Shown: piece after piece, positions 4,010-17,425 of the stretch
Position numbering within the stretch: position 1 is the stretch's first letter
Layout of the letters: each line of letters starts with the position of its first letter
IMG/VR virus record: IMGVR_UViG_3300043442_001338
Span: 1 to 24,473 of that record
From: a virus
Taxonomy: Duplodnaviria; Caudoviricetes
Reading direction: 5' to 3' (one strand)
Length of the DNA: 24,473 nucleotides
Made by a program: the position numbers and the translations under genes
The notes under the pieces: model-generated
Databases searched by the model: none
What the model was told of the DNA's origin: nothing
Seen by the model: only the letters and a program-made list of their open reading frames with translations

Positions 4010-4034
4010 GAGCGCTCCGCAAGGGGCGCTTTTT
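4010..4034 (+). terminator. intrinsic terminator
   Basis: AGCGCTCC-GCAA-GGGGCGCT-TTTT. Confidence 0.8.
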
Positions 4035-4060
4035 ATTAGCAATGCTTATGGTTTGAAGCG

Positions 4061-5261: not shown

Positions 5262-5290
5262 GAGCGCTCCGCAGGGGGCGCTTTTCTTTT
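5262..5290 (+). terminator. intrinsic terminator, near-identical to 4010-4034
   Basis: AGCGCTCC-GCAG-GGGGCGCT-TTTCTTTT. Confidence 0.8.
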
Positions 5291-5305
5291 GCCGGCTGGC
5301 CTTGT

Positions 5306-6260: not shown

Positions 6261-6326
6261 ACAATTGTTGCAGAGGGGCTGACCAGGCCCCTTCTGCCTT
6301 TATTGTTCTATCACGGGCGCGAGCCC
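6254..6326 (+). promoter_or_regulatory. early-type promoter module
   Basis: TTTGTAAA-CA-ATTGTTGC; GGGGC/GCCCC hairpin; TATTGT at 6301; GGGC-GCGA-GCCC leader. Confidence 0.65.
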
Positions 6327-7131: not shown

Positions 7132-7188
7132 CAAGCAGGGGTTTCGGCCCCTCTTGCCTGTATTGTTCCTTTGTCCGGCGGCGACGCC
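7115..7188 (+). promoter_or_regulatory. early-type promoter module
   Basis: TTTGTGAA-GC-TTTGTGAC; AGGGGT-TTCG-GCCCCT; TATTGT at 7161; GGCG-GCGA-CGCC leader. Confidence 0.7.
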
Positions 7189-7464: not shown

Positions 7465-7552
7465 TTGCAACGATTTGTGAAGCTAATGGTTTAGGGGCTG
7501 GCCACAGCCCCTTTTTGCTCTATTGTTCCTTTGTTCGGAGGCGCGAGCTTCC
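7464..7552 (+). promoter_or_regulatory. early-type promoter module
   Basis: ATTGCAAC-GA-TTTGTGAA; AGGGGCTG-GCCA-CAGCCCCT; TATTGT at 7521; GGAGGC-GCGA-GCTTCC leader. Confidence 0.65.
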
Positions 7553-9044: not shown

Positions 9045-9134
9045 GTAAAGGATCCGGCTGGTTTCGTAAAGGATCCGGCTGGCTTTGTATCTGGATCCGG
9101 CCAGGGTCGTATTAGATCCGGCTAGGGGCGTATT
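9045..9134 (+). repeat. four 21-22 bp iteron-like repeats, core GATCCGGC
   Basis: Units start at 9045, 9066, 9087, 9109 (GTA-N3/4-GATCCGGCY...). Confidence 0.85.
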
Positions 9135-9160
9135 ATGCCTTTATGGTTCTATGGGTTTAT

Positions 9161-9450
9161 GCTCATATCGTCATATCGTCATATGCTCATATTGCCATAT
9201 CGTCATATGGGCATATAGGCATATCGGTATATAGGCATATCGGCATATCGGTATATCGCCATATCGTCATATGGGCATATGGGCATATGGGCATATGGGC
9301 ATATGGGCATATGGGCATATGGGCATATGGGCATATGGGCATATAGGCATATGGGCATATCGGTATATAGGCATATTGTTATATGACCCTATCGGCATAT
9401 AATTATAGGCGCACATGATTATATCGGCATACAAGTATATGGGCATATAA
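9161..9450 (+). repeat. 8-bp tandem repeat array (CATATGGG and variants CATATCGT, CATATAGG, TATATCGG)
   Basis: Nine perfect CATATGGG copies at 9268-9339 with degenerate flanks. Confidence 0.95.
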
Positions 9451-9470
9451 CCATACCGTTATATAAATTT

Positions 9471-9527
9471 TACTTATATCAGTAATACTTATATCAGCAA
9501 TACTTATATCGGCAATACTTATATCAG
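9471..9527 (+). repeat. 15-bp tandem repeat TACTTATATC(A/G)G(C/T)AA x4 (last copy partial)
   Basis: Read directly from the sequence. Confidence 0.9.
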
Positions 9528-9849
9528 GATTGCCAATGTTACAGCTTGTGACAATCGGGCTCAGTCTCGCGGGTCTCATGGTATGGGCGCCTGTGTTGCT
9601 GAATGTGACGCTAGCGGTTGACGGTGTAGGGGGGTGCATGGTATCCGCGCGGGCGCGCTTTCTTTCTTTCCCCTTATGGTCGCCGCCCCGTAGGCTCCTG
9701 GACAATCGGCCAAACCACAAAACCGCCACACAGTCCGGGACCTTGTGACAGTCGCGCAAGTGTCCTAAGTTCCTGGACCGTGGGCCGGATGGGCGCAATG
9801 ATGGCGTCAAGCGATCGGGGACGGTCGCCGCAGTTCCTACTTTCCTTTC

Positions 9850-13345: not shown

Positions 13346-14794
13346 ATGAAGCTCAAGGAACAAGCAAAATGCGACAAAATTGCCCGCACTGGCCGGGTGC
13401 AGAGCTGGATTGATGAAGCCGATGGAAGACTGCCCGTGAGCTGCACGGTCTTCGTCGTAGATGATTCAATGGAAGGGGAAAATGGCATTGAAGCATCGTG
13501 GCGTTTTGTTTCCCATGGCCTGCGTAATGGTGCAGGCGTAGCCGTTCATTTGTCAGAGCTGCGTGGAAAGGGCGAGGAAAATGGCAAAGGCCTTGTTGCA
13601 AGTGGGCCCATTAGTTTTGGCAAGATTTATTCCACTCTCAATGAAATCCTTCGTCGCGGCGGACGTTATAAAAATGGGGCCGTAGTGCTTCATCTTGACT
13701 ATTCGCATCCTGACATTCTTGATTTCATCAAAGCTTCTCGCCAAGAGCTTCCATGGGTGAAGAGGTGTGTGAATGTGGATGAGCAGTTTATTGAGAACTC
13801 TTCTCAAGAACTGATTGATGAGTTGTTGAAGGGCATCGCTTCTGGCGACATTTGGCTTAATAAAATTCGATACGATCAAGAAGGAAAGCGCATCCGTGCC
13901 AATGTCTGCCTTGAAGTTTATCTTCCTCACCGTGGCACTTGCCTTCTTCAGCACGTCAACATGGGTGCTTGCGACATCGATGAAGTAGAGGAAGCCTTTG
14001 TCGAGGGCATGAAGCAACTGTGCGAGCTCCATCCCAGCACAGGCGTTGGTGACACTGGCGAATACCTTCCCCCTTCTATTGACAAGCAAGTGGGCCTTGG
14101 CATGCTTGGTCTTGCCAACTTCCTTTCCCTCCATGGCATTTCTTACGAAGACTTCGGGAAAGCTCTGGAAGCCCTGAACGATGATGATCCCCATCCATGG
14201 TGCCACTATTGGTGCGAGAAGCCTGCTGGCAGGGCTGCAGCAGCCATTCGCGATGGCATTGAAGCAGCAGCAAAAATTGCTCGCGAGCATGGCATGAAGA
14301 GGGCTTTCTGCATTGCCCCCACTGCCTCTTGCTCTTATCGCTATCTCGACAAGAAAGGCTTTACGACTGCCCCTGAAATTGCCCCTCCCATTGGACGGCT
14401 TGTTGATAGAGACTCTGGCACCTTTGGCGTGGAAAGTTTTGACTATGGGGAAGTGGAAATTGCGGGAGAAGTGGGCTGGTCCAGTTATTTAACTGTTGCC
14501 AATGAATTGGTTCGGTTGTACCAGCAAACCGGCCTTTTCCATGGCTACAGTTTTAATAGCTGGAGTGATGTGGTCGTTTACGATCGCAAATTCCTGGCAG
14601 ATTGGCTTGCTTCTCCGCAAACTAGTCTGTACTATTCGCTGCAAGTTCTGCCTGATACGCAGCGTAAAGACGATGCCTATGCGGCATTGGACGATTCGTT
14701 TAAGACCATGTTTGGCCTTGATGACAGCGAGGCCGAGGAGGAGACTGTCTCTTGCAGTTTAGACGCTGGCTTTTGCAGCGCCTGTGCTGAATAG
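13346..14794 (+). CDS. nrdA: class I ribonucleotide reductase alpha subunit, short cyanophage type
   Basis: PVSC, NVCLE (NxCxE), CLL, APTASCS, SLYY Tyr dyad, C-terminal CSAC; no ATP cone; beta subunit adjacent. Confidence 0.92.
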   Translation: MKLKEQAKCDKIARTGRVQSWIDEADGRLPVSCTVFVVDDSMEGENGIEASWRFVSHGLRNGAGVAVHLSELRGKGEENGKGLVASGPISFGKIYSTLNEILRRGGRYKNGAVVLHLDYSHPDILDFIKASRQELPWVKRCVNVDEQFIENSSQELIDELLKGIASGDIWLNKIRYDQEGKRIRANVCLEVYLPHRGTCLLQHVNMGACDIDEVEEAFVEGMKQLCELHPSTGVGDTGEYLPPSIDKQVGLGMLGLANFLSLHGISYEDFGKALEALNDDDPHPWCHYWCEKPAGRAAAAIRDGIEAAAKIAREHGMKRAFCIAPTASCSYRYLDKKGFTTAPEIAPPIGRLVDRDSGTFGVESFDYGEVEIAGEVGWSSYLTVANELVRLYQQTGLFHGYSFNSWSDVVVYDRKFLADWLASPQTSLYYSLQVLPDTQRKDDAYAALDDSFKTMFGLDDSEAEEETVSCSLDAGFCSACAE

Positions 14795-14867: not shown

Positions 14868-15608
14868 ATGGTCGCCGTCGAAAACTCGCCCTATCTGTCA
14901 ATGATTGCCAAAAAGCGCCCTTGGCAAGCTGTGCCAGTGGACAAGGGAGCGCTGGTCGATGGCAGTGAGGAAACTTTGTTCAGGGCTCTTGCTCTGCGTC
15001 ATCTTGAGCTGCCCGTAAAAGATTTTCTGCAGCAAGGGCTTGAGCGTGACCTCCCGTCCACTCCTGGCGTTGTAGAAGCCCTGATTCACAACCAAGAAGA
15101 CGAAGCTCGCCACGATGAAGCTCTGAACTATGTGGCCGCTGCTCATGGTACTGACGCCCAAGCAGAAAAGGAAGTGATGAACATTTTGAAAGCTTGGAAC
15201 GACCATCCTGCCCACCCCATCTTGAAGGCTTCAGTGCTAGAGCGCAGCTTGTTCTTTGTGATTTTGCCGTTCTTCCGTTTCAATGGTGATATTGGCATTC
15301 GCACTGTTAGTGCCGACATCAGCCGCGATGAAATCACTCACGTGGGGGTACATAGTCTCGTGGCGAAGGAGTTGGATGAGCATGCTGGTCAAAGCCTGAA
15401 CAAGCTTCGTCGTGCCACTGCCCTGTGGATCTTTGACAAGCTCGGCCCAAGTGAAAACAAATGGCTGGACAAAGATTTCTGGTTGCGCCAAAGCGACAAT
15501 TTGTTCGAGCGAGGCAAAGCAGAAGAGCTTGCTGACACACAGCGCAGTCGGATGCCCTCGTTCTTCGAGGCGCCCAACACTAGTCTGCCTTCCTACGGTC
15601 GCGCTTAG
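14868..15608 (+). CDS. nrdB: class I ribonucleotide reductase beta subunit (ferritin-like)
   Basis: Ligand motifs LELPV, DEARH, LERSLFF, DEITH; directly downstream of nrdA (alternative start 14859). Confidence 0.85.
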   Translation: MVAVENSPYLSMIAKKRPWQAVPVDKGALVDGSEETLFRALALRHLELPVKDFLQQGLERDLPSTPGVVEALIHNQEDEARHDEALNYVAAAHGTDAQAEKEVMNILKAWNDHPAHPILKASVLERSLFFVILPFFRFNGDIGIRTVSADISRDEITHVGVHSLVAKELDEHAGQSLNKLRRATALWIFDKLGPSENKWLDKDFWLRQSDNLFERGKAEELADTQRSRMPSFFEAPNTSLPSYGRA

Positions 15609-15619
15609 TGCTATAGTGT

Positions 15620-15927
15620 CAAGCGACGGCGGGCAAGCCTCTGCGCGTCACTGGGAGCAAATCCCGGATGACCCTCACGCTTGCTCCATCGTCTACCACC
15701 ACTACTGCTCTGTCGGTAGTGTGCAGCCAGCAGGAATGGGCACTGCGTCGATTCTGGTTTGGACCTTTTCGAACGTTGCTGGTTTGCGTGCGAAGTCCTG
15801 GGTTTCCAGGCCAGGGGATTGATCACCCCTGCCCGTCTGGTCCACGGTTGAGCCCTCGACCCATTTGGCAAGCTCGACGGACTAGCAACACCCCCTAAGC
15901 CTCTCAACGATGCTCAAACCTGGGGGT
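15620..15927 (+). ncRNA. candidate structured ncRNA 2, or a cluster of RNA domains (unassigned)
   Basis: Extended -10 TGcTATAGT at 15609-15617; many GC-rich helices and a multibranch domain 15775-15889; no credible ORF. Confidence 0.6.
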
Positions 15928-15931
15928 CACT

Positions 15932-17340: not shown

Positions 17341-17359
17341 GACCGTTCCTCCATGGTCC

Positions 17360-17410
17360 CCATCCCCCGTTTCATGGATGGCTTGCATGCACCCTTTGCA
17401 GGGCAAACGT
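17360..17410 (-). promoter_or_regulatory. glutamine-II (Downstream-peptide) riboswitch
   Basis: Minus strand ACGTTT-GCCCT-GCAA-AGGGT-GCATGCAAG-CCATC-CATGAAACGGGG-GATGG follows the CGUUC...GCGCA...CAUGGAACGGGG pattern with a compensatory CGTTT/AAACG pseudoknot; -10 TAAGCT at 17417-17422. Confidence 0.8.
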
Positions 17411-17425
17411 ATCTTTAGCTTATCA

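Follow-up and report, generated by a model that had tools for sequence, protein, structure and literature searches.

Antitoxin RNA mimicry is known from single cases, and AbiF toxins are the proposed ancestors of Cas13. According to the accessible portions of the respective reports, abiF-motif RNA binds AbiF directly and neutralises it in cis as well as in trans, as described for RCd22-AbiF of C. difficile (PMC12373285); at its HEPN site AbiF is blocked by the RNA, which the toxin itself processes (PMC12737573, PMC13064643). Likewise, as far as the available excerpts describe them, phage ΦTE escapes ToxIN via the antitoxin mimics pseudo-ToxI (PMC3475682), and Racrs mimic CRISPR repeats (PMC10651486). 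S-CREM1 carries an abiF RNA that was noted as possibly functional sRNA, and the accessible part of that report makes no link to an Abi toxin (PMC9964418). Here we report that the gap between a probable nrdB gene and a tRNA-like gene in a viral genome consists of small RNA modules strung together as a mosaic, rather than of a single large RNA.

Results

The locus and its neighbouring genes

The window, a stretch of 24,473 nucleotides, is a linear virus record that CheckV rates as 34% complete. Pfam identifies in it genes for the large subunit of ribonucleotide reductase, a metallophosphoesterase, a terminase and a portal protein. It probably stems from a freshwater cyanophage, because its RNA modules recur in Synechococcus phages and adjoin Cyanobium genes. 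The RNA region occupies the gap of ~300 nt from the end of probable nrdB (15608) to the tRNA-like gene, and its elements are as follows.

13346–14794: nrdA (PF02867), the ORF upstream of probable nrdB
14868–15608, + strand: probable nrdB (ribonucleotide reductase small subunit), named by inference from its position after nrdA
15609–15617, + strand: extended −10 promoter-like site, TG-C-TATAGT, read from the sequence, with a predicted start near 15624
15625–15690, + strand: module A, orphan copy of an uncatalogued RNA leading the toxin genes of one Abi_2 (AbiF) clade, assigned by a host-only covariance model
15697–15789, + strand: module B, hairpin 15700–15721 (loop CUCUGU) and a second stem, 15723–15732/15777–15787, with variable apex (model R1)
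15733–15776, + strand: module C, cargo nested in the apex of the second stem of B, delimited by length variation between the ends of B
15793–15832, + strand: module D1, two adjacent hairpins (40-copy alignment; stems read by eye)
15839–15883, + strand: module D2, a conserved loop on top of two stacked stems (33-copy alignment)
15886–15931, + strand: abiF RNA (Rfam RF03085 at 15891–15927) with flanks common to picocyanobacterial Abi_2 leaders, by comparison with leader L489
15933–16001, + strand: tRNA-like gene with an atypical, variable anticodon loop (ARAGORN, tRNA-Ile(gat))

The probable nrdB ORF has no Pfam match of its own and has 290 relatives in viral contigs. Its stop codon directly adjoins the promoter-like site, and 21 of 32 distinct arrays linked to nrdB have a similar −10 site ahead of their first module; a −35/−10 promoter scan of the window did not report the site at 15609–15617. 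At some loci (L056–L058, L076, L126) an extra ORF, endonuclease-like by eye, separates nrdB from the RNA array. At the other end, Rfam finds no tRNA in the window. In the tRNA-like gene the U that normally precedes the anticodon is missing, and there are 13 loop variants among its relatives, which ARAGORN assigns to Ile, Met, Val, Gln or to no tRNA at all (including loci L009, L335 and L645). A copy consisting of the anticodon arm only is found either alone or nested in module A. This tRNA-like RNA is possibly a decoy for anticodon nucleases.

Elsewhere in the window, a Glutamine-II riboswitch scores above the Rfam cut-off at 17359–17412 (minus strand) and is present also in L002, L108, L123 and L150. 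The stretch 9094–9533, in which some 50 tandem 8-nt units precede four 15-nt repeats, is possibly a replication origin, and terminator-like and promoter-like motifs are repeated among the small early genes (4010–4040, 5262–5292; 6287–6323, 7147–7183, 7507–7543).

Modular composition of the array

We compared 199 loci, 80 with a related nrdB and 119 viral loci with the exact 22-nt abiF core. In BLAST, similarity to the region falls in separate blocks: block A is fused directly to abiF in L126, L170 and L172, modules A to C are replaced by others in L001, and extra modules stand between D2, abiF and the tRNA-like gene in L002. Motif typing of the first 273 loci yielded 87 distinct arrays in 46 orders. 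Typing of the six window modules across every viral and metagenome locus gave 286 distinct clusters, which fall into 39 orders; these counts are of distinct sequences rather than independent genomes, from loci picked by pattern scans and cut at their flanks, which can share one contig and include host A copies. The full order A-B-C-D1-D2-abiF occurs in 1 of the 286 clusters, namely the window. Module A precedes B in 15 clusters and follows it in 8. Among relatives, modules are lost, swapped, reordered or solitary; in other cyanophages, A and abiF are each found singly amid tRNAs. Arrays usually terminate in tRNA-like genes, and A, B, abiF and module P accommodate long foreign hairpins at their tips. 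A BLAST search of the region against phage and plasmid records matched the abiF part alone.

The loci L002, L060, L065, L068, L114, L148, L150 and L222 hold at least eight modules that the window lacks (P, N, Cp, Q, V, R, S and U), as well as long-insert forms of abiF. A likeness of module R to L712 was judged to be chance.

Structure and conservation of modules B, C, D1 and D2

The original prediction of a structured non-coding region with its own promoter-like site ahead of a tRNA-like gene, which named abiF among the RNA families to be checked, is supported, and the elements it named (the extended −10, the hairpin 15700–15721, the arms CCTGG/CCAGG and CAGGGG/CCCCTG and the final CCCCC/GGGGGT domain) are in place. 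The region folds better than its shuffles, though modestly (z −2.2; 2 of 100 shuffles equal it). In comparison with homologues, A, B and D2 each covary. In the hairpin 15700–15721, 6 of 8 pairs are changed on both sides among 22 sequences; across module B the figure is 9 of 16 pairs, with 97.4% of cells paired (17 copies), and model R1, built with the window left out, scores the window copy at 59.4 bits. The stretch between the conserved ends of B varies from 11 to 56 nt in 59 distinct copies, and C is therefore cargo in the tip of B; the C pattern is present in 8 of 68 B-bearing clusters. With the second stem of B formed and C as its cargo, the partner of GTTGCTGG is therefore CCAGCA (probability 0.88) and not ACTAGCAAC (0.12). 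In D2, 5 of 12 pairs are changed on both sides and 97.7% of cells are paired (33 copies); 67 of 500 shuffles reach this pair count, and none of 500 reaches the cell count or the score. Single-sequence folding gives the outer D2 helix of the window a probability of only 0.07.

Several of the originally proposed pairings are not supported. The CAAGCG/CGCTTG helix thought to close a domain at 15620–15683 has a pair probability of 0, its GCTTG pairing with CAAGC at 15634 at a probability of 1.0. The closure GTTGCTGGT/ACTAGCAAC proposed for a second domain has a probability of 0.12, the module B stem that competes with it one of 0.88, and of 31 arrays with D1 and D2 only the window itself has an 11-bp helix at the flanks, the others having at most 8 bp. 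TGGACC, which had been paired with GGTCCA in a pseudoknot, is present upstream in 5 of 31 D1+D2 arrays and the putative kissing palindrome TGATCA in 19 of 44 distinct D1 copies; kissing loop and pseudoknot are therefore not general features. For the arm CCGTC/GACGG the evidence is divided: single-sequence folding prefers it, but comparison prefers GGTCC/GGACT, in which 4 of 5 pairs are changed on both sides.

Host counterparts of B, C, D1 and D2 were sought with weak means, namely 125–371 sampled genomes, short motifs and limited candidate scoring. BLAST of the four modules in 301 host genomes gave a best E of 7.7e-4 per genome, with top matches that were coding or chance, and no long antisense match of the modules. 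Models R1 and R2 found nothing in 150 host genomes (34–40 candidates scored per genome; positive control on R1 alone, 5/5), nor in 98 other loci, mostly Abi_2 neighbourhoods. The D2 pattern was met in 8 of 371 genomes, below the reversed control and in no case with stems; for the B and D1 patterns in 125 genomes, the candidates among the matches listed were coding or unscored. No Abi_2 gene lies beside 84 viral loci with the D2 pattern or 83 with the B pattern. HEPN_AbiV occurs in 1 of 125 genomes, and inspection by eye revealed no module in the 330 nt upstream of it. A likeness of D1 to retron msr RNA, and one of D2 to Cas13 repeats, is at most putative. Four short module motifs, checked for a match to retrons, are absent from three supplementary files of PMC10849725.

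Module A and the leader RNAs of Abi_2 genes

A pattern scan of metagenomes for module A returned 120 loci, and in 10 of these an Abi_2 ORF follows immediately downstream, with a TTGACA box upstream. The protein behind module A belongs to Pfam Abi_2 (PF07751; E 3.6e-48) and carries the HEPN motif RNRCAH (RxxxxH), invariant in 11 aligned proteins; a profile of these A-linked proteins matches the solved AbiF structure PDB 8VZ6 at E 4.2e-29. A protein-first scan of GTDB with the Abi_2 alignment collected 79 loci; a scan with a single Abi_2 protein as query found nothing. In all five cyanobacterial GTDB records of the A clade (Cyanobium sp. Cruz CV13-4-11 and MAGs labelled Cyanobium, Synechococcus, Prochlorococcaceae and Cyanobacteriota), module A lies between the TTGACA box and the gene. 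An A-type descriptor, drawn up after both sets had been seen, occurs upstream of Abi_2 in 46 of 75 loci (the 79 minus three without a gene start and one duplicate), with 2 matches in 859,420 other bases and 1 in the window (15625). The 29 misses are mostly distant Abi_2 matches, several of them with abiF-like or other leaders by eye.

When 16 host copies were aligned jointly with 12 phage or environmental ones and with the window, changes on both sides were seen in 12 of 17 pairs of module A. Covariance model R3, built from 21 host leaders only, detects the window at 15625–15690 with 26.7 bits (E about 3.5e-6, filters off; the next match scores 13.1) and gives 45 matches over 70 further loci, many of them phage copies. 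Host leaders keep the same letters that do not vary in phage copies, and the end letters of phage copies are of the cyanobacterial, not the proteobacterial, type. Window A shares 25–26 of 33 letters with three distinct cyanobacterial arms, a level reached by 0–1 of 100 shuffles. Its apex is replaced by a foreign 32-nt hairpin; the host leaders themselves vary at the apex, and minimal phage copies that carry no cargo stand alone. Sequence profiles performed less well: host-only nhmmer missed window A, and a host-wide weight matrix ranked it first yet within the shuffled range (11.0 versus a mean of 8.5 and a maximum of 14.8). Searches of Rfam, RF03085 included, gave no match to module A in the window at E up to 1. 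Host A-type leaders matched no Rfam family, and RF03085 was not found in three of these leaders at E up to 0.5. By its position and by analogy with abiF and RCd22, the A-type host RNA is inferred to be an antitoxin.

The abiF module and Abi_2 genes in hosts and phages

The terminal ACCCCC/GGGGGT domain of the region proved to be Rfam abiF: RF03085 matches over model positions 1–37 with 55.7 bits (E 4.3e-8), well above its gathering cut-off of 37. It is the one match inside the region in a search that took in manA, wcaG, GOLLD and ROOL, none of which was found at E up to 1. Picocyanobacterial Abi_2 genes outside the A clade have leaders that match abiF weakly in 10 of 10 cases (29–34 bits, under the cut-off of 37). 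In L489, a second picocyanobacterial Abi_2 leader, both flanks are common with the window. Its apex is longer, as it is in sampled Cyanobium abiF-type leaders, and the exact target of the abiF copy in the window therefore lies outside the sampled loci. RNAs of the A and abiF types thus stand directly upstream of picocyanobacterial Abi_2 genes.

In the window abiF is followed directly by the tRNA-like gene and not by an Abi_2 gene. PF07751 is absent from 10 of 10 array-bearing phage records, of which 7 are at least 90% complete and one is the window record itself (G000; 34%), and from the flanks of all 71 viral A loci. Of the 119 viral abiF loci, 39 of which are shorter than 1000 nt, 6 have Abi_2 in their flanks, and in 2 of the 6 a Pfam-confirmed gene behind the RNA serves as a positive control. 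Abi_2 is rare in the hosts as well (14 of 251 Cyanobium-family genomes and 19 of 331 relatives). At two loci, L448 (G001) and L315, one of which is from a named host, a frameshift interrupts the Abi_2 gene that follows module A.

Other Abi_2 leaders are diverse. Distant ones (L445, L449, L450) resemble phage module P by eye and are not matched by R3; module P could represent a third class of decoy. Additional distinct types of leader RNA were seen in L452, L458, L463, L464, L476 and L710, in L466, L467 and L469, and in L454, L455 and L461; those tested against Rfam gave no match.

The array in an RNA library

In one freshwater metatranscriptome, a 317-nt contig is identical to 15631–15882 and continues into module Q as in L002. 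Its depth is 29.9, versus 2.4–9.5 for four other near-identical contigs of the phage in the same run. The contig documents presence in the RNA library of one study, in which strand, ends and level are not visible and DNA is a possible source. Run X2 gave only short pieces, its RNA status being a guess, and was left out of the count.

Discussion

Modules A and abiF appear to be toxin-less copies of RNAs that lead host AbiF genes, and they probably bind and silence the RNase toxins of two AbiF clades during infection. The array would be made as one transcript from its own promoter, starting at about 15624; its A and abiF RNAs would flood the cell and act in trans as additional antitoxin at a stage where infection would otherwise release the toxin. 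An anti-phage role of the cyanobacterial Abi_2 proteins is putative. The modules may have been gained from host defence loci and exchanged among phages by recombination. Modules B, C, D1 and D2 would then serve as decoys for other RNA-controlled defences, an extension that we put forward tentatively and rate somewhat below an even chance. With the same reserve, every module, including the at least eight found in relatives, might decoy a different RNA-controlled defence enzyme, some of them nested, in a dedicated recombining cassette of freshwater cyanophages.

The function of B, C, D1 and D2 bears the strongest competing explanation: A and abiF might be decoys and the other four modules small regulatory RNAs unrelated to them, with host or phage mRNAs or proteins as targets and only the promoter in common. 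No host counterpart of the four was found, as this would have it, and the wcaG and manA RNAs, whose function is unknown, lie in the same S-CREM1 cluster as abiF. The host searches were insensitive, however, the BLAST of 301 host genomes brought up no long antisense match, and B, C, D1 and D2 are like A and abiF in size, patchy presence and reshuffling, so that we regard this division of labour as rather unlikely. A different use has been considered for A and abiF themselves, in which modules derived from host Abi_2 leaders and other RNAs now serve cargo hairpins and tRNA-like RNAs as stable scaffolds or as signals for processing, instead of acting as decoys. The long foreign hairpins at the tips of A, B, abiF and P, the tRNA-like genes that usually end the arrays and the processing by AbiF of its own RNA, described in the accessible part of PMC12737573, would fit such a role. 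Yet phage copies keep the same invariant letters as host leaders, the apex is variable in host leaders too and minimal cargo-free copies are solitary, and we consider such a use improbable.

The single ornate RNA of GOLLD, ROOL or manA type that the original prediction envisaged, 300 nt long with optional domains and possibly dimerising via its loop palindrome, can draw on a closure only 0.6 kcal/mol worse than the best fold and on the one RNA-library contig, which covers A to D2. Against it stand the 39 module orders with a single full copy, the direct fusions of A to abiF, the lack of conservation of closure, pseudoknot and palindrome, and the failure of Rfam to match any such RNA; a unitary RNA is thus very improbable. 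It is likewise scarcely credible that the modules are neutral relics of recombination with host loci: the rarity of host systems in sampled genomes would agree with this, but the phage-only alignments of B and D2 contain compensatory changes, and 119 viral abiF loci are recovered by an exact 22-nt core.

Should the decoy reading of A and abiF be correct, a widespread modular multi-decoy array would represent a novel type of counter-defence in phages and would assign a role to the orphan abiF RNAs in phage tRNA clusters. The unassigned modules could be used as baits for new RNA-controlled defences. If all modules are decoys, the array would amount to a catalogue of undiscovered RNA antitoxins, and through module A an uncatalogued RNA family ahead of the genes of a widespread AbiF clade has already come to light. 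That family, outside Rfam, leads Abi_2 genes across cyanobacteria, Proteobacteria and Desulfobacterota and bears on the co-evolution of AbiF toxins with their RNAs. A phage array of AbiF decoys or an A-type RNA was not met in the titles and abstract openings of the literature searched; Zilberzwige-Tal et al. 2025 may describe AbiF RNA classes or phage copies. Some supplements of PMC10690425 may list a number of the modules as candidate RNAs.

On the sequence evidence, we propose that the array is a new form of RNA antitoxin mimicry together with an uncatalogued RNA family. With the abiF/AbiF type III toxin–antitoxin system it shares the full abiF motif (15891–15927), and module A occupies the same promoter–RNA–toxin position in a related Abi_2 clade, with a stem and a CYC internal loop in common; unlike that system, the phage RNA is followed by no toxin gene, and module A falls outside RF03085 and Rfam. 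From GOLLD, ROOL, manA and wcaG the window differs in matching none of them in Rfam (E up to 1) and in having neither a fixed domain order nor conserved long-range pairing. The wcaG/manA/abiF cluster of S-CREM1, as described in the accessible part of PMC9964418, likewise holds an orphan abiF that directly precedes a tRNA and has almost the same flanks, whereas the window has no manA or wcaG match. Racrs, too, are small RNAs of viruses that imitate the RNA component of a defence complex, but as solitary mimics of CRISPR repeats. Like pseudo-ToxI of ΦTE, the array would be a phage-encoded orphan mimic of a type III RNA antitoxin, the mimicry here being putative; ΦTE, however, uses tandem copies of one mimic against ToxN, whereas here unlike modules are reordered and nested, and the presumed target is AbiF.
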